Assembly: GCF_016806735.1 (NCBI RefSeq)
Contig: NZ_CP060530.1
Coordinates: 810,001-842,000 of the forward strand
Length of the DNA stretch: 32,000 nucleotides
Source of the DNA: Candidatus Micrarchaeum sp.
GTDB lineage: Archaea > Micrarchaeota > Micrarchaeia > Micrarchaeales > Micrarchaeaceae
Direction of reading: 5' to 3'
Shown: in pieces, positions 348 through 28,296 of the stretch
Layout of the letters: the number at the start of each line of letters is the position of its first letter
Numbering within the stretch: position 1 is the stretch's first letter
The notes under the pieces: model-generated
Told to the model about the DNA's origin: nothing
What the model saw: only the letters and a program-made list of their open reading frames with translations
Databases searched by the model: none
Position numbers and translations under genes: made by a program

Positions 348-731
348 TTATATTTGTTGCCCTGTGCTTTTGGATGCGCCCCTGCCCTGCTGCTTCAGCC
401 CGGGCATGTAGCTGAGCAGCGACAGGGCGTACATCAATATTATTATTGCGATGCCGGCTGCAACCGCGCCTAGGCTTCTCCCGGTTATTATTAGCAGCGC
501 CGCGAATATGACCCCTATTGCCAGGTACGATACGGTTTTCGAGTTGTACGAATCCCTGGCTTTCTTGTATTTCACGTAGCAATCCTTGCATACTACTAGC
601 CTGTAGTTCTTCTCATTGTGCGTAACGTTGTGCTTGAACCAGCGCAGCGATTTTATAACATAGTCGTCTTTCACTTCGAGCCCGTTGAGCTCCTTTCCGC
701 ATATTATGCATCTTGTCTCCTTTTTCATCAT
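348..731 (-). CDS. small zinc-ribbon membrane protein (N-terminal CxxC...CxxC, two C-terminal TM helices)
   Basis: 127 aa starting ATG-ATG. Motifs CIICGKEL ... VVCKDCYVKY form a 4-Cys ribbon, followed by hydrophobic segments AIGVIFAALLIITG and AVAAGIAIIILMYALSLL. It starts 2 nt after the upstream gene's stop. Confidence 0.65.
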   Translation of the reverse strand: MMKKETRCIICGKELNGLEVKDDYVIKSLRWFKHNVTHNEKNYRLVVCKDCYVKYKKARDSYNSKTVSYLAIGVIFAALLIITGRSLGAVAAGIAIIILMYALSLLSYMPGLKQQGRGASKSTGQQI

Positions 732-733
732 AA

Positions 734-1039
734 TCAGCTAAAATTTATCGTAGCCTCAAAAATCCTCCCGGATTCTGCAAGGAGCTTCTGCTCGTCCATG
801 CTGTCTATGGTGCTGTTTATCGTTACGTCGTCCATGCCAAGCCTCCTGAGCACGTTTACGATTGCGTCCCTCTTCAGGTTTATTTTCTCCAGCATGCCTG
901 CAAACGCTATTGCGTTTATGTGCCTGTGGGCCTTCTCCATGTCCGAGAAGAGCTTGGCCATGCTCGATTCGTCCACCTTGTATATGGTGAGTATGCGCCT
1001 CAGCTCCTGCCTGCTTATCGTAAATGTGTCCTTAGCCAT
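734..1039 (-). CDS. hypothetical small soluble protein, translationally coupled to the upstream ATPase
   Basis: 101 aa with an ATG start that overlaps the ATPase stop by 8 nt. No TM segments and no motif I recognise. Confidence 0.55.
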   Translation of the reverse strand: MAKDTFTISRQELRRILTIYKVDESSMAKLFSDMEKAHRHINAIAFAGMLEKINLKRDAIVNVLRRLGMDDVTINSTIDSMDEQKLLAESGRIFEATINFS

Positions 1040-2549
1040 TCACAGCACCCACGGATGACATTATTCTGGTTATCAATAGGTCCTCTATGCTCAGGTTCTT
1101 GAGGAACTGGACTACGTCCTCGGTAGTTATGCCGTTTGACATAAGCAGGCGTATGAAGTCTAGTATCTTTGAGGACCTGTTCTGGTCGTTGAGGACCTTG
1201 AATATCGAATTTATGGCTTCTGTGCTTACGTTGTATTCTATGAACTTGTTCTTGAGCTCCTCCTCCTCGAACTGGTAGTCCTTCTGTATTATGCCGGCGG
1301 AAAGCTCGCTCTGTGTCAGTATGTCGGTTATGTCTAGCGTGTACACGTATAACGGTTCCTCTCCGCGCACCCTGTCAAGCACAAATATCTCCGGGAAGCG
1401 CAGCGATGTCTGGAATGCCATGTTGACAGCAGCCTGGCCCACGCCGAACTTGCTTATCTCGGAGCGTATGAAGTCGGAGAAGTTTATGGATCCCTGTATG
1501 TAATCGAGGAACTTTTCGAACCTTATCCTTAGTATGAAAGTTGTGCCTACGTTGGAAAATATGGCTTCGTTTATGTCCGTTGGATTCTGCGATGCCACTA
1601 TTAGGCCGAACTGGTATTTTCTGCCCTCCCTGACTATCATGACCGCGTCGCTCTTCTCATCTCCCGCTATCTTCCATGCCTCGTCGAGAACGACAAGGGT
1701 CTTAAGCCCTTTTGCCTCGTTCCAGCCCTCGAAGCGCATGCGTTCCTTGAGCGTCTGAAGTATGAAAAGGGCGGCAAGAGCCCTGAACCTCTCGTCAGGA
1801 AGGCCAGACAGGTCTATGTCGACAAGCCCCGAGTTCGCGAGCTTTTCGAGGTTGACAGTGCTTTTCCTTGCGAAGTAGTCCTCTCCCTCTCGTGCGAACT
1901 GCCTTAGCCTGTATATCGCATTTTCGAGTTCGGCAGGATATTCGTAGGTGCCCTCCTGCAGCTGCTCTTCAAGTATCGATATCGCGTCCTTTAGCGTTGG
2001 CGCTTCCTTGTCCTCCGGCGCAGGTTCGGCAAGAACAAAGCCTGCATTGGTGTACGATTGCTCTATTGCTTCCTCGGTAAGCCTGCGCTGCTCCGGATAC
2101 GAGGCTATGTCGGTAAGTATCTCGAATGACGAAAGTATCTGCTTGACCCTGTCCAGCGGCTTCATGCCGGAAAGGTCCATTATGTTTAGGTAGTCGCCCT
2201 TGCCCAGCGATACTATTATGCCATCGCTCTGCTTGACCCAGGCGCGGTATTCTGCTGCCCAGTCTATTATAACGGCATTGGTGTTCCATATATAGCTGGC
2301 CCTTATCAGGAATGTCTTGACAAAGTAGCTCTTTCCCGCTCCGGTTATTCCCACAACCGCTATGTGCGGATTTGTAAGGTTGGTGAACGACCAGCTGAAC
2401 GGGACCTTGAAAAGCTTGGTGTTGCCTATGAATATTGCCTGGAACGGGTCGTTTATCAGTATGTTTGCCGGCGGCTCCGGCGGCCTCGACAGGAAGGCCC
2501 TTTTGCCCACCTCGTTGCTCATTATATTCTGCAATTTCAGTATGCTCAT
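1032..2549 (-). CDS. VirB4/TrbE/CedB-like (HerA/DUF87-AAA_10 superfamily) P-loop ATPase lacking a long N-terminal domain
   Basis: 505 aa. Walker A GITGAGKS lies at nt 2328-2351 and Walker B LVVLDEAW (DEAW) at nt 1674-1685. A downstream REGRKYQFGLIVASQNPTDI matches the RK...(A/T)TQ..D pattern typical of VirB4/TraC-type ATPases. There are no GspE/FlaI-type Asp/His boxes. Confidence 0.8.
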   Translation of the reverse strand: MSILKLQNIMSNEVGKRAFLSRPPEPPANILINDPFQAIFIGNTKLFKVPFSWSFTNLTNPHIAVVGITGAGKSYFVKTFLIRASYIWNTNAVIIDWAAEYRAWVKQSDGIIVSLGKGDYLNIMDLSGMKPLDRVKQILSSFEILTDIASYPEQRRLTEEAIEQSYTNAGFVLAEPAPEDKEAPTLKDAISILEEQLQEGTYEYPAELENAIYRLRQFAREGEDYFARKSTVNLEKLANSGLVDIDLSGLPDERFRALAALFILQTLKERMRFEGWNEAKGLKTLVVLDEAWKIAGDEKSDAVMIVREGRKYQFGLIVASQNPTDINEAIFSNVGTTFILRIRFEKFLDYIQGSINFSDFIRSEISKFGVGQAAVNMAFQTSLRFPEIFVLDRVRGEEPLYVYTLDITDILTQSELSAGIIQKDYQFEEEELKNKFIEYNVSTEAINSIFKVLNDQNRSSKILDFIRLLMSNGITTEDVVQFLKNLSIEDLLITRIMSSVGAVNG

Positions 2550-2559
2550 TTTTACGACC

Positions 2560-3390
2560 TCAGCTCTGGTTATCGAACATCGTCGAAAGCTCCTTCATGC
2601 CCGTGGGGAGCGAGAAATTGAAGTTGAAAAGCGAATAAAGCTCGCGGCCGATTATCCTTGAGGTTTCTACGTCCATAGAACTGAACGACAGCCTTAATTG
2701 GTTTACCTGCGCGTCAAGCGCGTCAAGAGCGGCCTTCTCGCTTACCCCTATCGCAGTGGTTTCTATGTACATGACTGTGGCTATTGGCTTCTCGCCCTGG
2801 GATATCCTGTTTATCTTGGCCTGTATCATGTTCATTCTCCTTCTTATGTCCGTTAACGTGACCTCGTTCGAATTGTTCTGCATTGCCCTCGACAGCTGAA
2901 ATTCCTGGTAAGAGCGCTTGCCCTCGAGCTCGTCCCTTATGCCCTGGACGTCAAGGCCTGAGGCAAGGACATGGAACTTGAAAGGGAAGTTTATGTTCAT
3001 CACTATGCGCTCCCAAAGCTCCGGCGCGCTTATCATCTTCTCCTCGTCATCTTCCGGAGCGGATTCCTCCCTGAAAGTATAGGCGAAGAGGTTGGCGGTG
3101 ATATAGCCGGTTGCGTAGAATATGCCGTTCACTTCCTTTATAACGGCGTTCTGGTGCTTGTTGATCGTGTAATCCTTCGCAGGCTGGAAGGTTATTCCAA
3201 GTATTGAGGTTATTGCAGAGAAAAGCTTCGCGTCTATCCAGTTCATCGCAAGTATGAAAAGGGTAGTTATAAGCAATAGCAACACGCCTATGTAGTATAA
3301 TATCCCCTTGCCGAGCTCATGCAATGCCAGGAATCCGAAAAGCACTATTATAAGCGAAAAGAGGAGGAATACGAGCTTTGTTTCGTCCAT
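2560..3390 (-). CDS. 2-TM anchored protein with a soluble C-terminal domain; paralog of the 3390..4223 product
   Basis: 276 aa. N-terminal hydrophobic helices are LVFLLFSLIIVLFGFLAL and ILYYIGVLLLLITTLFILAM. It shares colinear patches with the neighbour: VIKEVNGIFYATGYI / ILRKSGENFIATVYI, EDDEEKM / EDDEKL, and IATVMYIETTAIGVSEK / FELSTYMTVSATGVKEY. Confidence 0.75.
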   Translation of the reverse strand: MDETKLVFLLFSLIIVLFGFLALHELGKGILYYIGVLLLLITTLFILAMNWIDAKLFSAITSILGITFQPAKDYTINKHQNAVIKEVNGIFYATGYITANLFAYTFREESAPEDDEEKMISAPELWERIVMNINFPFKFHVLASGLDVQGIRDELEGKRSYQEFQLSRAMQNNSNEVTLTDIRRRMNMIQAKINRISQGEKPIATVMYIETTAIGVSEKAALDALDAQVNQLRLSFSSMDVETSRIIGRELYSLFNFNFSLPTGMKELSTMFDNQS

Positions 3391-4223
3391 TATATTACCT
3401 GTTCCTGTATGTTTTTGCTTATCTGTTCCGTTACCGTCGAAATCGGCAGGAGGTATTCGGGCTCGACAAACCTAAGCAAGTCCGCACCGGTTATTATGCT
3501 AGGCGGGACTCCGAATATGGATCCCACTCCGGACATCAGCTCCTTGGCTTTCTGCTGGGCCAGGCTCGATGCTTCATATTCCTTGACACCGGTTGCAGAC
3601 ACTGTCATATAGGTGCTTAGCTCGAAGGAAAAGCCCTTGCCTATGCTGTCCAGCATGTTGCGCCACATGGCCAGCTTGCCACGGACTCTGTCCAGTTCGT
3701 TCTTCGGCGCGTCCTTGGACTGAAGGTCTGCCTCCTCGTTCTCAGTCATCGTTATCCTTTCCTTGAGCTTCTGTATATAGGAGTCCTTGTTCATCACGTA
3801 GAGCTCCGAGGTATACCTTACCGGATCTTTTGAGAGGCCGACAAGCCTGCTTATTTGCTGTGAAAAGTCTAGTTTTTCGTCATCCTCCATTTCTGTGGCT
3901 GACCTGTACAACGGTATCGATATGTAGACAGTAGCTATAAAATTTTCTCCGGACTTGCGCAGTATCGTATCTCCAGACTGGGCAAGCCAGTATGGATTCT
4001 CGTTGCTAAGTATTACGTGCTTCTTTCTGTGTTTAAGCAGCGGACCAATCAAGTATGAGTAATATCTGGAGGTAAATGCCATTGCGTCCAATACGAGAGA
4101 GATAAAGAATAATATTATTTTTATGTATGAGGGAAGCAGCAGAGAAGGGACAAACATCACTATGCCCATTAACACCGCAGATGCCAGGATTAAACCTACG
4201 AACATCCCCACGTAACTTGCCAT
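3390..4223 (-). CDS. 2-TM anchored protein with a soluble C-terminal domain; paralog of the 2560..3390 product
   Basis: 277 aa with an ATG start. Its stop overlaps the next gene's ATG by 1 nt (TAATG). N-terminal TM helices are followed by a charged, coiled-coil-like soluble domain. Confidence 0.75.
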   Translation of the reverse strand: MASYVGMFVGLILASAVLMGIVMFVPSLLLPSYIKIILFFISLVLDAMAFTSRYYSYLIGPLLKHRKKHVILSNENPYWLAQSGDTILRKSGENFIATVYISIPLYRSATEMEDDEKLDFSQQISRLVGLSKDPVRYTSELYVMNKDSYIQKLKERITMTENEEADLQSKDAPKNELDRVRGKLAMWRNMLDSIGKGFSFELSTYMTVSATGVKEYEASSLAQQKAKELMSGVGSIFGVPPSIITGADLLRFVEPEYLLPISTVTEQISKNIQEQVI

Positions 4224-4295
4224 CGAATCACTACCATATTGCTTTAAAGGTTAATAAATTTACCTATATATATCCACAGTACATATTTTCATTGC

Positions 4296-5921
4296 TTATA
4301 TAAACTTGGCGCGCGCCCTTCCGCTCATGCGTGCGGCTCCGCCTATGAAATTCGCAAGTTGCACGACGAAGGCGTACGTGACCGCGCTTATCAGTGCAGG
4401 ATAGAACAGTATCAGCAGCCAGAAGCTGTTCAGTGAGCTGCTTATGCCTGAAAGGGTAATGACGAGCGGGCTTGAAGGCGTCACAGCGTTATTGACTGCG
4501 CCTTTGCCTACGCTGTACCTGTTGAGCAAAGCCGCAACGTTGTTCATCTGTGTAGCGAGATGCGGAGCAGTGAAATAGAAGGCAACCGCAAATAGGAGGG
4601 GCATTACAAAATAGAATCCGGCGGCAAGGGCTATAAGTATGCCTCCGAGCGACCTCGTTGGAAGCAGAACCCTTAATATGACTCCCGGTATCAGGAAAAC
4701 GGGTATGGCTGCAATTGCGAAAAATACTATTAGATAGTATTCGGCGTACAGCGCCAGTATCCCGTCGTATATGAAGCCGGAAACTACCGCTGTGGGCTCT
4801 ATGAAATATATGTCAAGCGGAAGCAGCGAATATTTTACCACAGTGCCTGTCAGGTTGAGCTGCGGCACAGCAGGCACGCTTAAGTCTACGGACAAGGTGC
4901 TTAGGTACATGTCGTAGTCGTAGGCGTGGAACAGGCCGGTGTATACGTTCTCTGCCGAATTTATTGTAGTAGTTATAAGATGCAGAGAAGTAGCGTAGGG
5001 ATTTATCGCACCGACGAAAACCCCGGGAATAAGGCCGAATATCACGGCGCTAAGATAAACGAAAAATGCTACGATTATGGCACTTGCCACTGCTTCGTAT
5101 AGTTCGCCTATGCCGAAGTTGCGTATCTTGTTGTTTTTGATTCCGGCTCCGACCATGAATATGCCCCCTGCTATGAGGAAGGCTATCATAACGACTATGA
5201 ATGCTATCGGTATGTCTTTCTGCCAGGATAGGTACAGCGATTGGTTTATCGGGCAGTACCATGGCTCGTTCGAGCCCAGGCTCTTTGCCAGGCTTGGTGG
5301 AAGGAAGCCGCACTCTATCTTGGGCGGCGTTGAAGAGGGAGAGCAAGCGATGTATCCCGAGGGACAACCGTTGGTTGGGCCGCTGCTCTGATACTGGCAA
5401 TTGGACGGGCAAGAACTTCCAACAGTTGACGGAAGGCATTCATTGCACGAATAAAAAGCAGTCGTTGTTGTGGATGTGGTTGTTGTAGACGTAGAAGTTG
5501 TCGAGGTGGAAGTTGTGGAAGTAGATGTTGTTGTTGACGTTGTTGTTATTGACGACGAGGTAGTTTTTACAGTAGTTGTAGAAGTTGAGGTAGTAGTTGT
5601 TACACATACTAAGGCCCTGCTTGTTGTTCCAGGACAGTCGAAATGCTCGACCTTGCAGTCGCCTATTGGACAGCTGACCTCTGTCCCGCATTCGTCGCAA
5701 TTGCTGTATTGCGTCATTATCGGTATGCTTAATGTGCTTAAAGTGGAATCGGAAGTGCCTGCATATGCGTATCCGGATGTTGAGTTGATTGCACCGACTG
5801 GCTGCTGGTGCTGGACGTTATGAGGCGCATAGAAGTACGATGCATAGGCCAAGGCAACGGCTATAATTACCGCGTATAGGACGAATGCCATTAATCTCTT
5901 TTCGTTTTGCAAAACTTGCAC
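4296..5921 (-). CDS. polytopic membrane protein, paralog 6 of 6 (RxxPxTRxxGG family), with an N-terminal Cys-rich plus poly-Thr/Ser ectodomain
   Basis: 541 aa. A GTG at 5919-5921 abuts the upstream stop; an alternative ATG at 5889-5891 would give MAFVLYAV.... It has a signal-anchor, two Cys modules flanking a 47-aa T/S run, then the family core (GELYEA ... ILRVLLPTRSLGGILIALAAGFYFVMPLL ... GGAARMSG tail). Confidence 0.8.
   Translation of the reverse strand: MQVLQNEKRLMAFVLYAVIIAVALAYASYFYAPHNVQHQQPVGAINSTSGYAYAGTSDSTLSTLSIPIMTQYSNCDECGTEVSCPIGDCKVEHFDCPGTTSRALVCVTTTTSTSTTTVKTTSSSITTTSTTTSTSTTSTSTTSTSTTTTSTTTTAFYSCNECLPSTVGSSCPSNCQYQSSGPTNGCPSGYIACSPSSTPPKIECGFLPPSLAKSLGSNEPWYCPINQSLYLSWQKDIPIAFIVVMIAFLIAGGIFMVGAGIKNNKIRNFGIGELYEAVASAIIVAFFVYLSAVIFGLIPGVFVGAINPYATSLHLITTTINSAENVYTGLFHAYDYDMYLSTLSVDLSVPAVPQLNLTGTVVKYSLLPLDIYFIEPTAVVSGFIYDGILALYAEYYLIVFFAIAAIPVFLIPGVILRVLLPTRSLGGILIALAAGFYFVMPLLFAVAFYFTAPHLATQMNNVAALLNRYSVGKGAVNNAVTPSSPLVITLSGISSSLNSFWLLILFYPALISAVTYAFVVQLANFIGGAARMSGRARAKFI
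5461..5598 (-). repeat. low-complexity (ACN/AGN)n coding repeat encoding a Thr/Ser run
   Basis: The + strand reads gtcgttgttgtggatgtggttgttgtagacgtagaagttgt.... The minus strand encodes VTTTTSTSTTTVKTTSSSITTTSTTTSTSTTSTSTTSTSTTTTSTTTT. Confidence 0.85.
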
Positions 5922-7037
5922 CTATATGAAATTTGAAAGCAAAGCCATAAAGCTTACCTTTTCGCCTATCGCCTTCGAAAAATCAACTATGAAAGCGTCC
6001 AGTATTATGAAGTTTATGAATGGTATGAATGTCAGTCCAGCTATGACGTACCCGAGCCCAAGTATAAGCCCGCTTGGAAGCAGAGGCAGAGTACTGCCAT
6101 AAGCGAACGTTATGAAGTCCACTATCGCAGATGGAAGAAGCGCGAAGGCCCCGGTGGCGGATATCATGTTCGCGTCTATGAACCCGTATGTTATGCTTAT
6201 CAGAAGAGGGTATATTACGCCGAGGCCCAGGCCGAACGCTATCATCGCGCCTCCGAATGTCCTCGTTATGCCGAAGAGCCTTGCAAACACTCCGAGCGTT
6301 ATGAAAAATATCAGGAACAGTATAGATCCGGATATCAATATTAGCTGCAGGTTGTTTAGCACTAAGAAGAATATCAGGGCAGACATTCCGGAGCCCAGCA
6401 TGCCTTCAAGCCCGTCGGGCATGACGCTCGTAAGCGAGGAGGATATCCCAAATCCTTCGATAGGCTCAAAGCCGAATTCGATTCCCGGAGATGAGCCTGA
6501 GGCTAAGCCTATTACGGAAACAAGGTCAAAATACCCAAGCGCATTGTTGGAAAATGTGCCTATGTCGCATGCCGACAGGTTGAACAGTGTGTTTATGCTT
6601 GGAGTGCTGCACTCTTTTGGGAGCAAGCCCACGGAATTGTAGTAGGTTGAGGGATTTATCAAGAACAGGTAGAAAAGCCCCAGGAATATAAGCAGCAGCA
6701 CTATGGAAAGCAGAGCTTCGTATATCTGTATCTTCGCCCAGTTTTTGGCGTTTGAGCTGTTGATTACGCTCGCGATTATGTAAATAAATGCCGAGATTGT
6801 TATTACTATCAGGACCACTATTATTGCGAGGCCCATGCTGACTACAGGAGGAGTTATGCTGGTGAGCATTATTGGGAATGCTTTTATCTGGGCCAAGATG
6901 CCTGGATGCGACAATATATATGTCTGCAGGCCGTTCTGAACAAAAGCACCTGAACCGGTTCCTGAAGCACCGGCAAGCGGGGCGAGCGCTGCCAAGAGAA
7001 GCACAATGACCGCAAGCATAGATATTTTCATTGTCAC
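5922..7037 (-). CDS. polytopic membrane protein, paralog 5 of 6 (RxxPxTRxxGG family)
   Basis: 371 aa. Start is either GTG at 7035-7037 (GTGA overlap with the upstream stop) or ATG at 7029-7031. Signal peptide MKISMLAVIVLLLAALAPLAGASG. Family motifs: IQIYEA, FARLFGITRTFGGAMIAFGLGLGVIYPLL. Confidence 0.8.
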   Translation of the reverse strand: MTMKISMLAVIVLLLAALAPLAGASGTGSGAFVQNGLQTYILSHPGILAQIKAFPIMLTSITPPVVSMGLAIIVVLIVITISAFIYIIASVINSSNAKNWAKIQIYEALLSIVLLLIFLGLFYLFLINPSTYYNSVGLLPKECSTPSINTLFNLSACDIGTFSNNALGYFDLVSVIGLASGSSPGIEFGFEPIEGFGISSSLTSVMPDGLEGMLGSGMSALIFFLVLNNLQLILISGSILFLIFFITLGVFARLFGITRTFGGAMIAFGLGLGVIYPLLISITYGFIDANMISATGAFALLPSAIVDFITFAYGSTLPLLPSGLILGLGYVIAGLTFIPFINFIILDAFIVDFSKAIGEKVSFMALLSNFI

Positions 7038-8161
7038 ACCAGACCCTTGAGTGCATTCCCGCTTGAAAGGCTCGGCGCGCCAAGATAATCGCCCATAGTC
7101 TCGGCGAAGTCAAGCGAAAGCATTATCGATATCACCACTCCGATTATTACGTATATGCTGGGTGCCACGACACCCTCTATGAAACTTATGAGCATGTCAC
7201 CGCTTATAAAGTTGGCAAGGTAAGACAGGCTTGATACCGGGTTCCCGGAGAACGACGACAGGCTGAATATCGAGGTGTCGAACGTAGTAACCGGCACGTT
7301 AGAGAAGGATACGCTTGTGACGAAGCCGAGTAGAAGCGGAAGCAGTATGTAAAAGCCTATGAAAAGCCCTATGAAAGCCCCGCCTGCCGCACGTGTCCAT
7401 GGTATTGTTCTTAGTACAATCCCAACATAGAGGAATATTGGAAACAGGCCGTATATTATGGCAAGAAAAACCGATAGGCCGAAAAACAACGCTATTATTA
7501 TGCCTGTGAATTCCATCATCATTTTTATTATCTGGTTGACGACAGTAAGTCCCACATAAGGAAGGAATGAGAACCCGAAATAGTTTGGCGCTACGTTTAT
7601 GGTCGTATGCGAAACGATGCTGTAATAGTCCTGTATTATGGTAAGAGACCTGAAATCCGAAGTCGTATTAAGCGCGGTAAGCGTCATAGTATAGCAGTCA
7701 TGGCTGAAAATCCCGTAGAAATTGTAGTTGGAGAATATCCTTCCCGGAGAAGTGCCTCCGGTTATGGCAGCCATTGAGCCAAGCAGGACCAGCAGTATTA
7801 TGAGCGATATGGCTATTTCGCCCATCTCCGTTTTTGAAAAATTGACAAGCAGGTTTATCCCGAGGGCGTACCCTATCGCCCACGCCATTCCGACTATGGC
7901 GAAGATAAGCGCTATTATGGATATTGATATCGTGAAAACTCCGCTGGAAAGCGCGTTCCCAGAAGTTATTTCTGTAGATGATGGTATTATCCCATTAGAC
8001 GTCACAACCCCGTTGGCATTCGTAGTCCCGACGCAGAACGAAGAAGCTTCGCCTGAATAGCCGGCATGGGCCGAGGCAGGGAGCACAACCAGAAGTAGCA
8101 ATAGCAATGCCAGCACAGGCATGCCCCTTGCAGTCATTCCAAATCTTCCAGATGCCATCAT
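7034..8161 (-). CDS. polytopic membrane protein, paralog 4 of 6 (RxxPxTRxxGG family)
   Basis: 375 aa with an ATGA overlap with the upstream gene. Signal peptide ...VLALLLLLLVVLPASAHA. Family motifs: GEIAIS, VLRTIPWTRAAGGAFIGLFIGFYILLPLL. Confidence 0.8.
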   Translation of the reverse strand: MMASGRFGMTARGMPVLALLLLLLVVLPASAHAGYSGEASSFCVGTTNANGVVTSNGIIPSSTEITSGNALSSGVFTISISIIALIFAIVGMAWAIGYALGINLLVNFSKTEMGEIAISLIILLVLLGSMAAITGGTSPGRIFSNYNFYGIFSHDCYTMTLTALNTTSDFRSLTIIQDYYSIVSHTTINVAPNYFGFSFLPYVGLTVVNQIIKMMMEFTGIIIALFFGLSVFLAIIYGLFPIFLYVGIVLRTIPWTRAAGGAFIGLFIGFYILLPLLLGFVTSVSFSNVPVTTFDTSIFSLSSFSGNPVSSLSYLANFISGDMLISFIEGVVAPSIYVIIGVVISIMLSLDFAETMGDYLGAPSLSSGNALKGLV

Positions 8162-9663
8162 ACCAACCTCGACAAGCCCGCAAGGGATGTGTCACCGCCC
8201 AGCAGGCCGGACACCCCGATTATTGCGGTCAAAACTATTATTATGTTTATTATTGGAAGGAAGTATGCACTTATCCCGAATACGCCGTAAGATCTTGCCA
8301 CCAGGTAGTTTGTATTCAGCGCCTGGGATCTGTTGCAGGCATACGTTATCCCGAGTGTGCCGGTTGGCGGAGTCGGGTTATGGTTTGCAAACGCTATTAT
8401 GGAACTGAATATAACTCCGCCGTTGGCATACGGTATCAAGAGATCCTGCGTATCTGCCTGTTCCGTCTCAAAAAGGTTCCCGTTGTGCGGCCAGCAGCCG
8501 CCATATATTGCTATTGCGCTTATGTTAGGCATTATGTAGAAATTCGTCACATACGGCTCCCCGGTGCTGTTTGGAATGAAGTACGTGCTGTTCGTGAATA
8601 TATTTCCGAACCCGTAATAGCTGCCTATGTCGTTTGCAGAATATGAACCTGGAGTTATGGCGCCTGAAGAGCCAGATGGAGGCACATATCCCAGGGATGG
8701 GCCAAGCCCGTGAGCCAGCGAAAGGTATTCTATTGAAAATATCAGAGGGAAGAATATCACGCCTGCCACAGCTATAGCAAGCAGGAGCCCGCCTATTTTT
8801 CTTGTGAACGGAGTCGCCCTTAGTATTATCCCAACGAACAGGAAGTAAGGCCATGCGTATAGGAATATTGACAGAAGCGTCAGCTGGGCTATGAAGGATT
8901 CCAGAGCTGCGGTCAGAAGGTCTCCAAGCGCTGCCAATGATTTATATATCAACGAGTATCCTGCGAACGGAGTAATTGAATAGTGTATCAGCAGCTCCGG
9001 TGGATCCGGGAGCGGAAGCACGCATTCCGGTATTATTGGAATAGGGGGATCTCCCGGCGATATGCATATGTTTAGCGAGGGCGATAGCTTTTCCAGGAAG
9101 CCGACATAGGAATCGAATATGAAGAACGAATTCAGGTTTGTCGCCGTCTGGTTTGTAACGTTGGCTATTATGACACCCGTAGCCGCAAGCGGATAGTCAA
9201 CCTTCTCGGTAAACGTCTGCTTGTTGTTTTGCTTTACCAGGGCGCACAGGCCTGGGAAGCCGCTGGCACTCGAAGAATAAAGCAGCGAGGAACCAGTAGG
9301 GGACAGCGATGAATTCAGAAGCGTAAGCATTGACGTGGAGTTTATGCCCTTGCACATGTTGAATATTGCCGATGGAGACATCAGCGATGTGGATGAAGTG
9401 GCTGAATAGAAGGTGTTTGCGAAGATTACCAATATTCCGGCGAGCACTGCCACCAGCAGCGCGGTGCCGAAAACCTGGTAGAATTCGCCCATTGCAGTGG
9501 ATTTTATCTTGTTGTTGTTAAGAACAGCTCCTGCGAAATACCACAGCGCAACTATGGCAGCGTCTATGAATATCGCTATTGCTATTATTGGAAACATCTC
9601 CGTTGATATGGAGCTGTAGCTGGTGATTTGAAGCAGCGGAAACAGAAGCGACAAATCCATCAT
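8158..9663 (-). CDS. polytopic membrane protein, paralog 3 of 6 (RxxPxTRxxGG family), with enlarged extracytoplasmic loops
   Basis: 501 aa with an ATGA overlap with the upstream gene. Family motifs: GEFYQV, ILRATPFTRKIGGLLLAIAVAGVIFFPLI. It carries several N-X-S/T sequons and paired Cys in its loops. Confidence 0.8.
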   Translation of the reverse strand: MMDLSLLFPLLQITSYSSISTEMFPIIAIAIFIDAAIVALWYFAGAVLNNNKIKSTAMGEFYQVFGTALLVAVLAGILVIFANTFYSATSSTSLMSPSAIFNMCKGINSTSMLTLLNSSLSPTGSSLLYSSSASGFPGLCALVKQNNKQTFTEKVDYPLAATGVIIANVTNQTATNLNSFFIFDSYVGFLEKLSPSLNICISPGDPPIPIIPECVLPLPDPPELLIHYSITPFAGYSLIYKSLAALGDLLTAALESFIAQLTLLSIFLYAWPYFLFVGIILRATPFTRKIGGLLLAIAVAGVIFFPLIFSIEYLSLAHGLGPSLGYVPPSGSSGAITPGSYSANDIGSYYGFGNIFTNSTYFIPNSTGEPYVTNFYIMPNISAIAIYGGCWPHNGNLFETEQADTQDLLIPYANGGVIFSSIIAFANHNPTPPTGTLGITYACNRSQALNTNYLVARSYGVFGISAYFLPIINIIIVLTAIIGVSGLLGGDTSLAGLSRLV

Positions 9664-10862
9664 AAGCTCTCCCAGAACGATGCAGGCCCTTCTATGCCGA
9701 CGTTGAGCCCTCTTGCAAGCCCCATCGCAAAGCCGATGGTGACTGCAAGGTTAAGTCCGAAAAGGAACACTGCAACGAATATGAACTGCGACATCTGCTG
9801 CGTTATGTATGCCGCAGCAGGCTCTGGATCTATTGTAAGCGAAGAATAGAACGAAGATGAAAGTACGTTATTGACCGCCGGTGTGGATATGCCGAGCGCA
9901 CCGGTTATGCCGCCCAAAGCGTTGCTGCTGCTGCTTGTCACGCTTGTGCTGAGGAAGGACGAAGATGGAAGACTGGGCAGGGTATATGCGGTGCTCAGGC
10001 AGTTGGTGCAGCCATATGCCGGATTCAGCGCCGGGCTGTATATCCAGTAGACGATATAGCTGTCAAAGGCTATCATCAGCGGGTATATTATATACGCTGC
10101 GATTGCTATGGCAAGTATTGCGTTTGATGCGGATTTTAGACCGTTGCCGCCATAGGGTATCAGCCTTATCAGTATGGCAACCGGCAGTATTACGGTAAAC
10201 GCAGTATATTCCAGAAGGGGCAGCGCCAGGTATTGCAGATAAAGCATGCCTATGGTTATCACCAATATTGGCGACAGGGCATCGAAATAGACGTCTGAAA
10301 GCGCACCGTAGAGGGAGCCGAGGTCATGCTCGTAGGTGATGCCGAACGACAGTGCAGAGTCCCCGCCGGTACTGAAACCCAAATCCTGGGAAAGCGCAGT
10401 TATGACCCTAGCTTCTATGGCATAGCCTATGGATGTTGAGTATATGTATCCCAGCAGGTTTATTCCGTGGTTGAGAGCCAGCGTTCCTATGTAGTAATCG
10501 GCATACTGGAACGGGCTGAGCCCATTGGCATTGGAAACTCCGGCGCTGGCAAGCACTTGTGAGCCGAGGCTACTCGATAGGTTGCATGCGGCCGTGGTCA
10601 TGGAAAGCAGTATGAGTATTATGAATACGCCGATGAATATCTGCGTAATCTCCGACTTTGTCACCTCCCTGAGCCTGCTGCTTACCGATGGCGGCGTAAG
10701 CCTGCTGACCATGTACAGTATGGCCACTATCAGGAAACCGAGTGCTACAACCAGATATGTGAGTGGCAGCCAGCCGCTTATATACGGAGAGGCAGGGCCC
10801 CCGAAGAGCTGGCAGTAGTTTATTGCCGTTGTTGTAGCAGCTAAAATGAACATTATACTCAC
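9660..10862 (-). CDS. polytopic membrane protein, paralog 2 of 6 (the most divergent member)
   Basis: 400 aa. Start is GTG at 10860-10862 (GTGA overlap) or ATG at 10851-10853. Motifs are degenerate: SEITQI, LIRLIPYGGNGLKSASNAILAIAIAAYIIYPLM. The C-terminal tail GLARGLNVGIEG resembles the other paralogs. Confidence 0.75.
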   Translation of the reverse strand: MSIMFILAATTTAINYCQLFGGPASPYISGWLPLTYLVVALGFLIVAILYMVSRLTPPSVSSRLREVTKSEITQIFIGVFIILILLSMTTAACNLSSSLGSQVLASAGVSNANGLSPFQYADYYIGTLALNHGINLLGYIYSTSIGYAIEARVITALSQDLGFSTGGDSALSFGITYEHDLGSLYGALSDVYFDALSPILVITIGMLYLQYLALPLLEYTAFTVILPVAILIRLIPYGGNGLKSASNAILAIAIAAYIIYPLMIAFDSYIVYWIYSPALNPAYGCTNCLSTAYTLPSLPSSSFLSTSVTSSSSNALGGITGALGISTPAVNNVLSSSFYSSLTIDPEPAAAYITQQMSQFIFVAVFLFGLNLAVTIGFAMGLARGLNVGIEGPASFWESL

Positions 10863-12163
10863 GCTATCTTGAATTTGCCTACGCCCAGGCTTAGCTTTCC
10901 GCCGAGCATCTGGGCAAGGGCTCCCGCAATCACTATCGTTATGACTATGTCAAATATGAAAAGTATCAATTGCAGCAACACTCCGTACGTATAGAAGTTT
11001 ATGAAGTTTATTGAAGGATATATTGAACCGCCGTCATTATTAAACAATGTTGCCAGGGCCGAATCCTGCCCGTTGTTGAATACAGCAGTGTAGATAGAGC
11101 TATATGTTTGCCCACTTGTTATTTGCTCACTTATCAGGTAACCGGAAGAGAGGCTGAAAGCCAAACTTGCCGGGCCGCAGGCTATGTCCTCAAAAAAGTT
11201 GAAAGTTATGTAATTGCATGATTGCGCCGGTGCATAGCTGGCGCTCTGGCTGAATATAAGAGGCAATATGAAGTTCTGTATGGGAAGGTTGAACATTATT
11301 AATAGGGCAGGGAAGATGAGCGCTATTGCTATGCCTATGGCTATGAATGAGCCGCCCAAGCCCCTGAGGAATGGAAATGCCCTGAACACTATGCCTATGG
11401 GTATGAACAGTGTCAATCCGGCAATCACTATTGAATAAAGATCCACGCTAAGGACGCTGAAGACTATGTATACTGGAACCAGCACTATGGTTATTATGTC
11501 CTTTATGAACGAGAACCCTGGAAGCGCGGTGTCAGACTCTATTACGGAACTTGCAAGCAGAGCCGCATTGGATGAACCAAACTGGATTGCACCGACAAAA
11601 GGCAGAGGTATGGGTATCCATTCAGTTATTGACGCTTTTTTTAGGTCTCCGGTCCCTGTTGCTAATCCTTCCAGGCCGTAGTAGGATTCATTTACCATCA
11701 GCATATCCGGATTCACGTAGCTGGCCAAGACTGATGAGTAAAGCGCGTTTAGATTTTCTCCAACCGCACTGGTTATTCCGGATTGCGACCCTGGTATGTA
11801 GGAAACAGGTATGCTGCTTCCCGTAAGGCCCAGGGCCAAGCCCCCAAGTATTATCAGGACTGCAAAAATCAGCACTATCAATATTATCGTTTTTGTTGTT
11901 TCCCATAGCTCGCCTTTGTACCAGTTCTTAAGCGATGGAAGGTTGAAAACATTGCCAAACATGAACGCCACGGCAACCATGGCGAATGAGACAAGAAGGC
12001 CGATTACGGCAAGAGGTATTGCGCTTTCTATGCAGACACCAGCTTGCGTTATTGGCACGCTCTGACCCGTAAGCGCGCACGTTATGTCTGTGCTAGATGC
12101 GTTGGAATAGCCAATCAATGAGACAACGGCTATTGCTAACAGCAAAAGTGCAGCGCTTCGCAT
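10859..12163 (-). CDS. polytopic membrane protein, paralog 1 of 6 (RxxPxTRxxGG family)
   Basis: 434 aa with ATG at 12161-12163. Signal peptide MRSAALLLLAIAVVSLIGYSNASS. Family motifs: GELWET, VFRAFPFLRGLGGSFIAIGIAIALIFPALL. Tail: QMLGGKLSLGVGKF. Confidence 0.8.
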   Translation of the reverse strand: MRSAALLLLAIAVVSLIGYSNASSTDITCALTGQSVPITQAGVCIESAIPLAVIGLLVSFAMVAVAFMFGNVFNLPSLKNWYKGELWETTKTIILIVLIFAVLIILGGLALGLTGSSIPVSYIPGSQSGITSAVGENLNALYSSVLASYVNPDMLMVNESYYGLEGLATGTGDLKKASITEWIPIPLPFVGAIQFGSSNAALLASSVIESDTALPGFSFIKDIITIVLVPVYIVFSVLSVDLYSIVIAGLTLFIPIGIVFRAFPFLRGLGGSFIAIGIAIALIFPALLIMFNLPIQNFILPLIFSQSASYAPAQSCNYITFNFFEDIACGPASLAFSLSSGYLISEQITSGQTYSSIYTAVFNNGQDSALATLFNNDGGSIYPSINFINFYTYGVLLQLILFIFDIVITIVIAGALAQMLGGKLSLGVGKFKIA

Positions 12164-12206
12164 AATATTATTTTCAAGGATAAGTATTTAGTTGTGTGAC
12201 AGTCGT

Positions 12207-12216
12207 GCACATGTGC
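12207..12216. promoter_or_regulatory. perfect 10-bp palindrome GCACATGTGC upstream of the six-paralog operon (possible operator)
   Basis: Read directly from the sequence. It sits in the 104-nt gap between the 244-aa gene and paralog 1. On the coding strand it lies about 17 nt upstream of a TATA-like TAAATACTTA (12181-12190), which is itself about 18 nt from the ATG at 12163. Confidence 0.3.
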
Positions 12217-12267
12217 CGTTGTCCTTGGTGCCAATAGCTTGAAAAGGGGCAATTATGCATGGGCTTT

Positions 12268-13002
12268 TTAGGTATGGCTAAGTATCTTGAATCTCCTTAT
12301 GTAGGATTCGCTTTGCAGCACTATCAGGAATGGAAGCACTATGAAGGAATCTATGACAAGCGATGCGTACATAGAGACGTACGAGCCTGAGCCTATTATG
12401 GGTATTAAGTCAACAACGCTAAGAAGCACGAAAGATGCAAGTACCCACAGCAGGAAATACTTGAAGTGGTTTTTCATGAAGCCGAGGCTGTGCCCAATGG
12501 CCCTCATTGTCCTGGTGTCGTCTATCACTATGGACGTAGGGGCATAGAACAGGAATGGTATGAGAACGATCGCAGTGATGAGCGTGGCTATGCCAGAATA
12601 CCCGGTATAATACGTAAGGAAGCTTACTAGCACCAGAAGCGCGGTAAAGAGAAGAAGCACCACGAAAACATTGGCAGTGTATTTCTCCAATCCGTCTATT
12701 ACCTCTTTCCTGATCCTGGTCGCAGTATGGCTGTGCTTTACTATGACATTTATTGCGACTATGGCAAAGCTAAGGAATAGAAGCGAAAACATCGTAGAGG
12801 CCACTATTATTATCGCGTCTATGAAATTCAGGTTCAGGTATATGCTTCCGGTCCGAATGAATATTGAGCCGAGGTCGTTGTACGTAGGAAATGGAGCGAA
12901 CACCGGTATCAGAAGGGCGATTACGAACGCTATCGAGAAAAGCAGTATCAGCTTCAAATTTTTTTTGTAGGTGCTGAATGAGACCTCAATTATGTTAGCC
13001 AT
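12268..13002 (-). CDS. polytopic (about 6 TM) membrane protein, function unknown
   Basis: 244 aa with ATG at 13000-13002. It is almost entirely hydrophobic helices separated by short basic loops (KHSHTATRIRKE, KNHFKY). It lies between the pilin-like gene and the paralog array. Confidence 0.7.
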   Translation of the reverse strand: MANIIEVSFSTYKKNLKLILLFSIAFVIALLIPVFAPFPTYNDLGSIFIRTGSIYLNLNFIDAIIIVASTMFSLLFLSFAIVAINVIVKHSHTATRIRKEVIDGLEKYTANVFVVLLLFTALLVLVSFLTYYTGYSGIATLITAIVLIPFLFYAPTSIVIDDTRTMRAIGHSLGFMKNHFKYFLLWVLASFVLLSVVDLIPIIGSGSYVSMYASLVIDSFIVLPFLIVLQSESYIRRFKILSHT

Positions 13003-13112
13003 CGGTTTACCACGTTTATGATTGCAAATGACCGCAAGTTCAGATTATTAGAAGTTTAACACAATAAATAGATTTCGGTATGCGCAGGAATTGCGCATGC
13101 TAAGCGTCCCTG

Positions 13113-13180
13113 GAAAACGAAATCAAAAAAGAGGTAAAAAAGAAAGAAATAGAAAGCATGCCGAAGCCGCTTTTGGCTTC
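13113..13180 (-). terminator. hairpin plus long T-rich tract directly after the VirB2-like gene
   Basis: The minus strand reads TGA-AGCC AAAAGC GGCTTC, a 6-bp stem (13175-13180 / 13163-13168) that overlaps the stop codon. It is followed by GGCATGCTTTCTATTTCTTTCTTTTTTACCTCTTTTTTGATTTCGTTTTCC. Oligo-T tracts are the known archaeal termination signal. Confidence 0.6.
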
Positions 13181-13565
13181 AGCAATAAGAGGATATGGTC
13201 GAGGATGACGTGCTCGTTAGCAGCCCCAGTATGTATGGTGCAAGCTCGGCTATTATCACGCCTATAACCCCGCCTATTATCATGCTCATTCCATATCCCT
13301 GTATTGAACCCTTGCTCTGTGCGGGCATTATGTGCGCAGCCGCATATAGGGCTCCGCCCAGTATCATAAGGGTCAATCCGAGTATGAATATGCCTGTGTT
13401 TACGGCCACATATATGGGGCATATTACGCTGCTTATAGTTACTTGTATGCTAGATTGTGCCGAAGCAGTAGCTAGAGTAAGAAATGGGAGCAGCATAAGT
13501 ACAAGTTTGAACACGCGGGACTGTACTATCTTCATTAAACTTAATGTTTTTGTTTCTATAGGCAT
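13179..13565 (-). CDS. small secreted two-helix membrane protein; candidate VirB2/TrbC/CedA1-like conjugative-type pilin
   Basis: 128 aa. Start is ATG at 13563-13565, or the internal M at 13535. Sec-type signal MKIVQSRVFKLVLMLLPFLTLATASA|QSS. The mature part of about 92 aa is two hydrophobic helices (ICPIYVAVNTGIFILGLTLMILGGALYAAAHI and MSMIIGGVIGVIIAELAPYILGLL) joined by a short loop with one basic residue (PAQSKGSIQGYG), followed by a Ser/Thr tail. Confidence 0.65.
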   Translation of the reverse strand: MPIETKTLSLMKIVQSRVFKLVLMLLPFLTLATASAQSSIQVTISSVICPIYVAVNTGIFILGLTLMILGGALYAAAHIMPAQSKGSIQGYGMSMIIGGVIGVIIAELAPYILGLLTSTSSSTISSYC

Positions 13566-18015: not shown

Positions 18016-18852
18016 TTATTGACCTTGTCGCGACCTTTTCCTTTTTCGCATTACAGAGAATATTATAAGCCCTATAAGGATAACGAATACCGCCACGAAT
18101 GCGCCAACTATCAAAAGGCTGCTCGATATCGAAGTCGTAGTTGAGCTTGATGATGACAGGTATAGGTTTTCCAGCGTGGAATAGTATTTGCCGTCATACA
18201 CGTATCCCGCAACCATTGAGACGCCGAGCGATGCGTTTGCAAGTCCGGACAATTTGCCGACAGATACGTTGAAGCTCGTGTTGTAGTCGGACTGTGGGTC
18301 TATCGTAGCGGTCCTGTTTGGGGGAGAATAGCGCACCTGCGGCGGTGCGATTATGTTTATGGTCGTATTTATCGGCTTTGACCCTATGTTGAATAGCCCG
18401 ATGTTAAGCTTGCCGTCGCTGTAGCCAGCCGAGATTGGAGCAAGGTAGTCCGTGAGATTCCCGGAATCGTAATTGAACCTGCATGGAAATGCTGCAAAGA
18501 AGTTGGACGAGCCCTGGAAATATGAAACTATAACCTCCAGTATGTAGCTGCCAGGCATCGGCAGATTGCTGAGATTAAATGTGGCTCCCCTAGTTGCATT
18601 TGGATATATGGAGCCTATGCTGTATGCGCTTATGTTTGCAGATGCAAGGGGTCCGAGGCCTTTAGGTATAAGGGATACGCCGGTTGCCGGGAAATCCCCG
18701 CTGTTCTGCAGCGAGAATGACACGTTGACAGTATTTGAAGATACACTAGAGTATGTGCACAGGCCGGTAAGGCTCACTGTGGCACCGAATGAAGTATATG
18801 CTAGCGCAATAATTGACAATAGCATTATCGCAGCAAAAATACGCACAGCCAT
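18016..18852 (-). CDS. secreted, C-terminally TM-anchored surface (glyco)protein
   Basis: ATG at 18850-18852 gives the signal peptide MAVRIFAAIMLLSIIALAYTSFG; the ORF track's TTG at 18861 adds only 3 aa. I count 10 N-X-S/T sequons. It has a Ser/Thr linker SSSSSTTTSISSS, a TM helix, and a KRKRSR stop-transfer tail. Only 18 nt separate it from the downstream GT2 gene. Confidence 0.7.
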   Translation of the reverse strand: MAVRIFAAIMLLSIIALAYTSFGATVSLTGLCTYSSVSSNTVNVSFSLQNSGDFPATGVSLIPKGLGPLASANISAYSIGSIYPNATRGATFNLSNLPMPGSYILEVIVSYFQGSSNFFAAFPCRFNYDSGNLTDYLAPISAGYSDGKLNIGLFNIGSKPINTTINIIAPPQVRYSPPNRTATIDPQSDYNTSFNVSVGKLSGLANASLGVSMVAGYVYDGKYYSTLENLYLSSSSSTTTSISSSLLIVGAFVAVFVILIGLIIFSVMRKRKRSRQGQ

Positions 18853-18874
18853 ACACCTCAAATATCAGACAAGC

Positions 18875-27768: not shown

Positions 27769-28296
27769 ATGGGAATGAAAAACCAAAAAGCGCAAAGCGC
27801 TATGGAATACCTAATGACATACGGTTGGGCAATACTGATTATTGCGATAGTGCTGGCGGCACTTTTCTCACTGGGAATCTTCAGCAGCAGCTCCTTCACA
27901 GGAACGACTTGCATAGCAAGCTCCGGATTCTTGTGCAGCTCCCCTGTTTGGACTAGCGGAACATTGCATGTAACACTTGGACAGAGCACAGGCACATCTT
28001 GGACTGGAGTGAGCTTCTTCTTTGTACCATCAGGAGTAGCAGATCCAACAACGGCAGCACAAGTAACGTCGGCCAATTATGTTATAGCGAGTTTGTCGCC
28101 GTCCACAACTGACCTGTCAAGCGGACAAACAGTATCTGCAGACTTTACACTCAACGGAACGAGTCAACCAACAGGAGCAGACTTCTCAACAGCACCAGGA
28201 ACATCGGCAAGCGGAACTATTTGGGTAGTATATAACACGCCGAGCGCAAGTGGATTGTTGTCGCAGATAGCAACTACAACACTGAAGGAAAGCTGA
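27769..28296 (+). CDS. archaeal type IV pilin-like protein with a class III signal peptide (DUF361-type)
   Basis: 175 aa. M(GM)KNQKAQ|SAMEYLMTYGWAILIIAIVLAALFSLGIF has a short basic leader, the Q-S-x-x-E-Y-L motif and a hydrophobic helix, as in prepilin-peptidase (PibD/EppA) substrates. The rest is Ser/Thr/Gly-rich. Confidence 0.8.
   Translation: MGMKNQKAQSAMEYLMTYGWAILIIAIVLAALFSLGIFSSSSFTGTTCIASSGFLCSSPVWTSGTLHVTLGQSTGTSWTGVSFFFVPSGVADPTTAAQVTSANYVIASLSPSTTDLSSGQTVSADFTLNGTSQPTGADFSTAPGTSASGTIWVVYNTPSASGLLSQIATTTLKES

Follow-up and report, generated by a model that had tools for sequence, protein, structure and literature searches.

Six fixed paralogous membrane proteins of Micrarchaeota, encoded in a Micrarchaeum genome between a VirB2/TrbC-type pilin and a HerA/VirB4-type ATPase: a candidate platform for an apparatus derived from type IV secretion

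The question raised by the Candidatus Micrarchaeum sp. locus described here is what a tandem array of six genes for polytopic membrane proteins contributes to the cell. The array lies in a stretch of 32,000 nucleotides (contig NZ_CP060530.1, positions 810,001 to 842,000), termed the window, and runs head to tail on the minus strand from 4296 to 12163 as six adjacent open reading frames (ORFs) of 434, 400, 501, 375, 371 and 541 amino acids (Table 1), confirming the initial observation. The initial annotation suggested that the genes are co-expressed paralogs which may stand in the VirB6/TrbL/CedA position of a type IV secretion system (T4SS). The reading favored here, with a probability of about one half, is that the six proteins form a hetero-oligomeric membrane platform which in this organism serves a T4SS-derived pilus or transfer apparatus.

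The three classes of motif originally described as common to the six proteins are all found, and the near-invariant residues in an alignment of 141 sequences are E85, E88, G257, R261, P264, R267, G270, G271, P285, G421 and G422 (p434 numbering). Pairwise BLASTP among the six gives scores of 25–41 bits, which are merely suggestive, and paralogy was therefore tested with profiles from orthologs of other genomes. The positional hidden Markov models (HMMs) were built with the window copies left out and were compared with 1,200 decoys shuffled within 20-residue blocks so that hydrophobic segments stay in place. The positional HMMs score their own window protein at 408–639 bits and other window paralogs at 25–56 bits, compared with 8–20 bits for the best of the decoys. 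The most divergent member, p400, is picked up by the position-1 HMM (30 bits; decoy maximum 20) and by the position-4 HMM (35 bits; decoy maximum 14), and all six window proteins are linked through the positional HMMs. The six genes are true paralogs, and their paralogy is statistically real.

Taking the longest ORFs, the junctions between the six genes measure −4, −4, −4, −4 and 0 nucleotides, in agreement with the overlaps and the abutment first described. Alternative ATG starts located 3, 2 or 10 codons downstream in p400, p371 and p541, which are the starts used in public gene calls for these three genes, would open small positive gaps. Judged from the sequence, the six genes appear to be packed as an operon whichever starts apply, and this tight packing makes the proposed co-expression probable. 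The gene calls for p541 differ among public assemblies (297 amino acids, uncalled, or 531 amino acids), so that gene callers can easily overlook the sixth paralog. Between residues ~60 and 225 its Cys-rich and Thr/Ser-rich N-terminal extension contains 14 Cys and an extended stretch of Thr and Ser (TTTSTSTTTVKTTSSSITTTSTTTS), and it resembles a mucin-like stalk.

The family is large and was rightly called unrecognised. Scans of the six proteins, 112 relatives and 10 consensus sequences against Pfam, NCBIfam and PHROGs yield nothing apart from one weak, sub-threshold match of p375 to CedA, and no Pfam or NCBIfam model fits the six proteins or the 112 relatives. A word-indexed protein search returns 22–24 relatives per query. 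The true size of the family came to light when 1.84 billion cluster representatives were searched exhaustively with an HMM: at 50% identity there are 2,888 clusters with E ≤ 1e-3, of which 1,996 reach E ≤ 1e-10. Related loci in species-representative genomes are nearly all labeled Candidatus Micrarchaeota, Micrarchaeia or Micrarchaeaceae, and the named sources of family matches are Micrarchaeota-type metagenome-assembled genomes, save for a few labeled Marsarchaeota, Methanothrix or Acidiferrales. The odd names include L006 (JAVYSI010000036.1, "Methanothrix sp.") and L030 (DATLRT010000039.1, "Acidiferrales bacterium"), and the "Marsarchaeota" deposits bearing the cluster are L005, L010, L016, L018 and L041. 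These labels are taken as errors, likely bin contamination or mislabeling, because the contigs carry the same Micrarchaeota cluster at 38–90% identity.

The number of copies is fixed. ORFs were called in 71 loci and searched with the family HMM, and exactly six members are present in 44 of the 51 arrays not cut by the end of a locus; the other 7 look like split genes or artefacts of overlap filtering or ORF calling. The best match in other genomes falls at the same array position ~1,260–1,420 times compared with 3–117 times at any other position. Positional orthology is also found within eight deeply diverging loci (labels include Anstonellales, Iainarchaeum and Bilamarchaeum), and between these and the main set the positional signal is weaker, still visible. 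The fixed six copies and the orthology by position place the six-fold duplication before the radiation of Micrarchaeota. Each paralog appears to have been kept as a distinct subunit, a pattern that reads as the signature of an obligate hetero-oligomer and not of a birth-and-death cassette.

The AlphaFold2 model of paralog 1 computed with the 141-sequence alignment has a predicted local distance difference test (pLDDT) score of 87.6 and a predicted template modeling (TM) score of 0.83, an alignment of 14 sequences giving a pLDDT of 43.5 only. The model opens with the helix of the signal peptide and a small hairpin bridged by Cys, after which a tight turn connects two membrane helices. A long helix and a β-hairpin insertion come next, then a pair of long helices linked by an R-x-x-P-x-x-R-G-x-G-G turn, and the chain closes with a second helical insertion, the final membrane helix and a Gly-rich tail. 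The topology predicted for all six proteins is N-out with five membrane helices and C-in, using Cys pairs and N-X-S/T sequons as markers of the outside. Nearly all Cys residues and sequons fall in the long loops; Lys and Arg are mostly on three short inner segments of 11–20 residues each, the cytoplasmic turns among them measuring 11–18 residues, and on most C-terminal tails, two of which carry none or few. The outer loops, of 100–175 and 25–109 residues, are acidic and nearly devoid of Lys and Arg. This distribution supports the earlier presumption that the long loops are extracellular. Identity among 34 orthologs per position is 52–86% in the cytoplasmic turns and tail (one exception at 37%) compared with 16–38% in the outer loops, which bears out the proposed diversification on the exposed loops and indicates that the conserved face of the putative complex is the cytoplasmic one. 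The conserved cytoplasmic elements are a K-x-W-x-K-x-E-x-x-E turn, the R-x-x-P-x-x-R-x-x-G-G turn and a G-G-x-L-x-L-G...K tail.

Table 1. Features of the cluster in the window, listed in the direction of transcription (aa, amino acids)
Feature	Coordinates	Strand	Remarks
Whole run	348-13565	-	thirteen genes; intergenic gaps -8 to +176 nucleotides
VirB2/TrbC-type pilin precursor (128 aa)	13179..13565	-	signal peptide ending ...ASAQ, two hydrophobic helices, short basic loop PAQSKGSIQG
p244, conserved polytopic protein (244 aa)	12268..13002	-	~6 hydrophobic segments; always between pilin gene and array
Paralog 1, p434 (434 aa)	10859..12163	-	position best conserved across genomes; query for AlphaFold2 model
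Paralog 2, p400 (400 aa)	9660..10862	-	most divergent; degenerate core motif LIRLIPYGGNGLKSASN
Paralog 3, p501 (501 aa)	8158..9663	-	longest outer loops, 6 Cys, 8 N-X-S/T sequons
Paralog 4, p375 (375 aa)	7034..8161	-	sole member with sub-threshold NCBIfam CedA match
Paralog 5, p371 (371 aa)	5922..7037	-	
Paralog 6, p541 (541 aa)	4296..5921	-	N-terminal extension of ~230 aa before shared five-helix core
p277 (277 aa)	3390..4223	-	N-terminal hydrophobic hairpin and soluble domain; paralog of p276
p276 (276 aa)	2560..3390	-	N-terminal hydrophobic hairpin and soluble domain; weakly like VirB4 N-terminal part
P-loop ATPase, HerA/VirB4 (FtsK-HerA) superfamily (505 aa)	1032..2549	-	Walker A GITGAGKS
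p101, conserved soluble protein (101 aa)	734..1039	-	start overlaps ATPase stop by 8 nucleotides
p127, conserved protein (127 aa)	348..731	-	two CxxC pairs (zinc ribbon), C-terminal hydrophobic hairpin

All Micrarchaeales-type loci keep the order pilin, p244, six paralogs, p277, p276, ATPase, p101 and p127. The window pilin by itself matches Pfam PF04956 weakly over the full profile length (E 0.016), and its orthologs match PF04956 in 29 of 42 cases (best E 9.7e-8) and PF18895 T4SS_pilin in 9 of 42 (best E 9.3e-7); the 128-residue protein, encoded by an unannotated gene 1 kb upstream of the array, is a conjugation-type (VirB2/TrbC) pilin. The mature pilin is strongly conserved (…IFILGLxLMILGGALYAGAHxxPGxxKGxxQGYGMGMIxGGVIGVIIA…), with a conserved Cys near each end. 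Nine related loci encode 20 large proteins of 367–1,152 amino acids that bear the pilin domain, mostly at the C terminus, and the window has none. These proteins sit upstream of the pilin gene (L035:653-7466, L037:20-8437, L043:1686-8561, L044:16-8083 and others), with L043:1686-3584 encoding four tandem pilin domains. The sequences suggest that the pilin-fusion proteins may be pilus subunits showing big outer domains. No Pfam or NCBIfam match is found for p244, whose syntenic orthologs are 48 ORFs of related loci.

On the other side of the array, the orthologs of p277 and p276 cross-match at ~1e-5, and p276 matches the NCBIfam model NF045975 VirB4_plasma with an E value of 2.2e-4 (residues 6–260 on profile positions 24–276 of 894). 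Among 61 p276/p277 orthologs 4 match VirB4_plasma and 4 match CedB, in the N-terminal part of the models and with E values of 2e-5 to 2e-4 (best E 2.2e-5), which is weak evidence. Alignment by hhalign of the p276/p277 profile with single VirB4 sequences (VirB4 of pTiC58 and the TrbE-like protein of pNOB8), a comparison of low sensitivity, is negative, and a search of PDB sequences gives noise only. The ATPase exceeds the Pfam cut-offs for DUF87 (62 bits), AAA_10 and the TraG P-loop and matches the NCBIfam models CedD, CD1110-VirB4, CedB, VirB4_plasma and HerA with E values of 1e-14 to 1e-18, all far under the equivalog cut-offs. In the PDB one match alone is nearly full-length, to the C-terminal domain of VirB4 (4ag5, E 2e-7), and the HerA matches are stronger but partial. 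The arrangement suggests a VirB4 that may have been split into duplicated N-terminal-like parts, p276 and p277, and the separate ATPase. No significant family match is found for p101.

In the favored reading the six proteins would be made from one operon and enter, one copy each, a ring-like platform of the cytoplasmic membrane, probably pseudo-six-fold and with 1:1:1:1:1:1 stoichiometry. Its number of subunits would suit an ATPase that is hexameric, perhaps by way of three p277/p276 pairs, and the docking sites of the ATPase would be the R-x-x-P-x-x-R-G-G turns together with the Gly/Lys tails. The platform would pull the VirB2-type pilin and the pilin-fusion proteins out of the membrane to be polymerized into a pilus, and may also be a conduit for DNA or protein linking the Micrarchaeon to its host, a member of the Thermoplasmatales. 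The complex would thereby fill the role that VirB6, CedA and TedA have elsewhere as a platform for pilin extraction and for the passage of cargo. The apparatus as a whole would be a chromosomally fixed derivative of a T4SS with a VirB2-type pilin, large pilin-domain proteins, a split VirB4-like ATPase and neither relaxase nor coupling protein.

Several results weigh against this reading. The deep lineages of Micrarchaeota (Anstonellales-type and others) keep all six genes of the array, and there profiles of the ATPase, p276/p277, the pilin and p244 have no match up to 10 kb away from it. The array neighbors there are leucyl-tRNA synthetase, EF-1 alpha, SecD/SecF or giant proteins, and the array may have a core function that is independent of the ATPase. 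Partial alignments place the window ATPase just as near to HerA, and sequence and fold comparisons detect no kinship of the family to VirB6/TrbL/CedA. Since no relationship to VirB6/TrbL/CedA is detectable, the platform role is drawn entirely from gene context and topology. The co-occurrence with a VirB4-like ATPase, to which the initial annotation had tied its proposal, is found in the Micrarchaeales-type loci, and in the deep lineages none lies within 10 kb.

The same deep loci, together with the missing homology to VirB6 or CedA, favor an explanation that is possible if somewhat doubtful, in which the six proteins are an ancestral, autonomous membrane machine (a channel, a transporter, or a platform for the export or anchoring of giant proteins) and the T4SS-like genes of Micrarchaeales are merely adjacent or recruited it secondarily. 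Distant lineages keep the six genes beside SecD/SecF, beside divergently transcribed proteins of 1,850–2,200 amino acids, or with lipoprotein-like Cys-rich proteins of 870–1,440 amino acids directly downstream. Set against autonomy, all Micrarchaeales-type loci embed the array gaplessly and on one strand between pilin/p244 and p277/p276/ATPase, and the most conserved surface is cytoplasmic, which fits the docking of a cytoplasmic motor. The lack of an ATPase gene in a 10-kb flank, moreover, does not show its absence from the genome. Either the partner genes of the deep lineages lie elsewhere in the genome, or the array is autonomous and tied to a T4SS-like module in Micrarchaeales alone; the recurring link to very large secreted proteins and SecDF points to the biogenesis of surface structures in both cases. 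A related proposal, held tentatively, is that of a hetero-hexameric machine unrelated to VirB6 and ancestral to Micrarchaeota, forming the core of the cell-cell interface by which these DPANN episymbionts would attach to their Thermoplasmatales hosts and trade material with them. Its partners on the cytoplasmic face would be lineage-specific, a split VirB4-like motor with VirB2 pili in Micrarchaeales and SecDF or giant lipoprotein-like proteins elsewhere.

Some details of the deep loci may be recorded here. In one sublineage (L055:17074-19945, L074:17700-20555 and L076:17098-19952) SecD/SecF come directly after the array, and divergently transcribed proteins of 1,850–2,200 and 735–758 amino acids lie before it, one of the 735–758-residue proteins having a faint match to the Pfam SLT (lytic transglycosylase) domain. 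The Cys-rich proteins directly 3′ of the array are seen at L053:11997-20412, L056:7813-11733, L062:11503-15222, L064:7285-10932 and L065:12068-14692, and have N termini like lipoprotein signal peptides (…GC) and no pilin domain.

The assignment of the six proteins to the VirB6/TrbL/CedA component stands as regards position, between a VirB2/TrbC-type pilin and a VirB4/HerA-type ATPase, and does not stand as regards homology. The TrbL/VirB6 model PF04610 (COG3704) gives no match for the six proteins at E ≤ 1 nor for the 112 members at E ≤ 0.01. A VirB6 profile was made from Agrobacterium tumefaciens VirB6 and 31 homologs, all from Proteobacteria with identity ≥ 37% and thus of limited sensitivity, and hhalign against it gives a probability of 0.1% (E 0.63) for the 141-sequence family profile and 0.25% (E 0.25) for a 42-sequence one. 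Searches of PDB sequences with the family profiles find nothing, and Foldseek with the model of pLDDT 87.6 finds no match at E ≤ 0.001 in the PDB and BFVD, a fold negative that is not strong given the weakness of the method on all-helical membrane proteins. The top Foldseek matches, also non-significant, are to TTYH (Tweety homolog; E 0.4–3, probability ≤ 0.13, TM scores 0.12–0.19). The TTYH proteins, which are eukaryotic, span the membrane with five helices whose extensions build a helical bundle outside the cell; they offer the best geometric resemblance found and no evidence of relationship. Affiliation with ABC permeases, MMPL or other transporters was rejected, there being no profile or fold match to such families.

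Common descent in the form of extremely diverged members of VirB6/TrbL/CedA/TedA is accordingly an unlikely explanation. In its favor, the VirB6 protein of A. tumefaciens is reported to have its N terminus in the periplasm, five transmembrane segments with a large central loop on the outside, and its C terminus in the cytoplasm. The family shares this gross topology and the same gene position, and its polytopic layout (at least five transmembrane helices, large outer loop, N-out, C-in) is that expected of VirB6 without being VirB6-specific. TrwI/VirB6 of R388 (8rt9_F) is found at rank 21 of the Foldseek matches with E 3.2 and TM scores of 0.12/0.17, and a TrbL-annotated protein is also among the non-significant matches. 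The p375 protein matches CedA (NCBIfam NF041796) with 26.2 bits and E 5.3e-6, residues 197–349 aligning to model positions 102–243, compared with a cut-off of 330 bits. The 111 other members of the 112 leave this model unmatched, as do at E ≤ 1 the consensus sequences of positions 1–6, including position 4, and of four distant positions. The p375 match could be an artefact of composition or else a true signal, if a faint one. Divergence beyond recognition has a precedent, the components of Ced and Ted not being mutually recognizable by BLAST (PMC9905601). Two sequence characters also speak against descent. VirB6 has an essential invariant Trp in a conserved transmembrane-cytoplasmic region (PMC2653234), seen as an invariant W197 in the 32-sequence VirB6 alignment and absent among the invariant or near-invariant columns of the family (E, E, G, R, P, R, G, G, P, G, G). 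CedA's N-terminal part is reported to be homologous to the pilin CedA1 (PMC9905601), and hhalign of the family profiles with the cluster's own pilin alignment gives probabilities of 1.2% and 0.2%, so that the N-terminal hairpin is not pilin-like.

It is far less probable that the six genes are interchangeable versions of one component, a cassette for host range or antigenic variation of which one is used at a time. The outer loops, with their Cys pairs and sequons, are indeed the most variable regions, and individual members are inflated to 600–1,045 amino acids in some lineages. A birth-and-death process would, however, vary number and order, and the copy number is fixed at six with separate orthologs for each position; the four-nucleotide overlaps point to joint translation, and no recombinase or inverted or direct repeats were noticed among the ORFs, the repeats without a specific search.

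The remaining explanation, an integrated conjugative element with amplified membrane genes, has in its favor that a pilin and a VirB4-like ATPase are the core of conjugation systems and is the least probable of all, with no tRNA that could serve as a target in the 32-kb window, no integrase among its ORFs, no relaxase or coupling protein there or in an extra 4 kb of the related locus L001, an even GC content of 0.43–0.50 without a step at the cluster borders, synteny of the cluster across the phylum, and no relative among the 2.9 million viral or mobile-element contigs of IMG/VR. A mobile element was rejected on these grounds. The same locus with the same housekeeping neighbors (TopoVI-B, carbamoyltransferase) appears in independent assemblies, and p375 is identical on contigs of GCA_001896515.1, GCA_001889985.1, one metagenome of the Joint Genome Institute (JGI) and one Logan run.

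The remaining genes of the window are archaeal housekeeping genes, including those for FtsZ, Kae1/Bud32, glutamate dehydrogenase, MTAP, L10e and an SUI1-like protein. Together with the contigs that share p375 and the labels of the related loci, they mark the window as part of the chromosome of an acidophilic Micrarchaeon. Past the low end of the window the cluster goes on (L001:17860-21094) with a 242-residue coiled-coil protein having a weak ZapB-like match and a protein of 784–811 amino acids in which a single membrane helix separates a large, sequon-rich outer domain from a C-terminal domain in the cytoplasm, after which comes the TopoVI-B gene. Encoded at 27769-28296 on the plus strand is a 175-residue protein whose signal sequence (KAQSAMEYLMTYGWAILIIAIVLAALF) is of the archaeal class III (type IV pilin-like) kind and whose body is rich in Ser and Thr. 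It has no match in Pfam or NCBIfam and represents a second pilus system of the window, unrelated to the pilin of the cluster. The secreted 281-residue protein at 18016-18861 (minus strand) is likely a surface glycoprotein. It contains numerous N-X-S/T sequons and a Ser/Thr linker, and its C-terminal membrane anchor precedes KRKRSR.

At the level of the system the locus is classified as a Ced/Ted-like domesticated T4SS in which the polytopic component is replaced by, or has diverged into, a fixed six-paralog set, and at the level of the protein the six belong to a new family without a recognizable fold relative. Ced of Sulfolobales and Ted of Thermoproteales are domesticated T4SS with a VirB2-like pilin (CedA1/TedC), a VirB6-like pore (CedA/TedA) and a VirB4-like ATPase (CedB/TedB), which import DNA and lack a relaxase (PMC9905601). 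The Micrarchaeum locus resembles them as a chromosomal T4SS-like set without relaxase or coupling protein, with a VirB2-type pilin whose signal peptide is cleavable like that of TedC, an ATPase that may belong to the VirB4 family, and polytopic proteins between or beside them. It differs in having six polytopic paralogs in place of one, with no robust CedA sequence match, and in an ATPase that seems to be split into two membrane-anchored N-terminal-like paralogs and a soluble ATPase. The organism is also a DPANN episymbiont.

Like VirB6/TrbL (TrwI, RvhB6) of the inner membrane, the proteins of the family are polytopic, have a large outer loop and, in Micrarchaeales-type loci, are encoded with a VirB2-type pilin and a VirB4-like ATPase. 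They differ in the lack of PF04610, profile-profile or fold likeness and of the invariant Trp, and in that the Micrarchaeota array is also found without an adjacent VirB4. Rickettsia has five tandem genes, RvhB6a–e, with variable flanking or exposed regions (PMC2653234). The analogy with this amplification, drawn in the initial annotation, holds in form, as tandem amplification in an obligate symbiont, and ends at the six short paralogs with strict positional orthology over a phylum, compared with 4–5 giant proteins in a single taxonomic order. The closest ecological parallel is the MPF-FATA-like T4SS of Patescibacteria (the candidate phyla radiation, CPR), which is reduced, chromosomally fixed in ultra-small episymbionts, usually without relaxase, and contains VirB4, VirB6 and VirB2-like pilins. 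In an epibiotic Patescibacterium VirB6 is reported to be essential, as is the T4SS for epibiotic growth (PMC12102498). Those systems are bacterial with a recognizable VirB6 or PrgH in single copy, unlike the unrecognizable six-copy family of Micrarchaeota. The secretion systems given in the Mia14 genome paper are type IV pili, Sec and Tat only (PMC5498576), and none of the papers searched links DPANN or Micrarchaeota to this cluster.

Physical contact with a host cell is a necessity for Micrarchaeota (the archaeal Richmond Mine acidophilic nanoorganisms, ARMAN) and for other DPANN archaea, and to our knowledge no molecular component of this contact has been described. Independent of function, the array defines a family of 2,888 clusters with no Pfam or NCBIfam model and with a confident structure model that has no similar solved fold. 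The cluster, with its pilin, pilin-fusions, VirB4-like motor and six-paralog complex, is a concrete and testable candidate for the DPANN–host contact apparatus. If the favored reading is true, it would be the first T4SS-like system with a polytopic platform of six fixed, different subunits, and such a platform would bear on the symmetry match between the platform and the hexameric ATPase.

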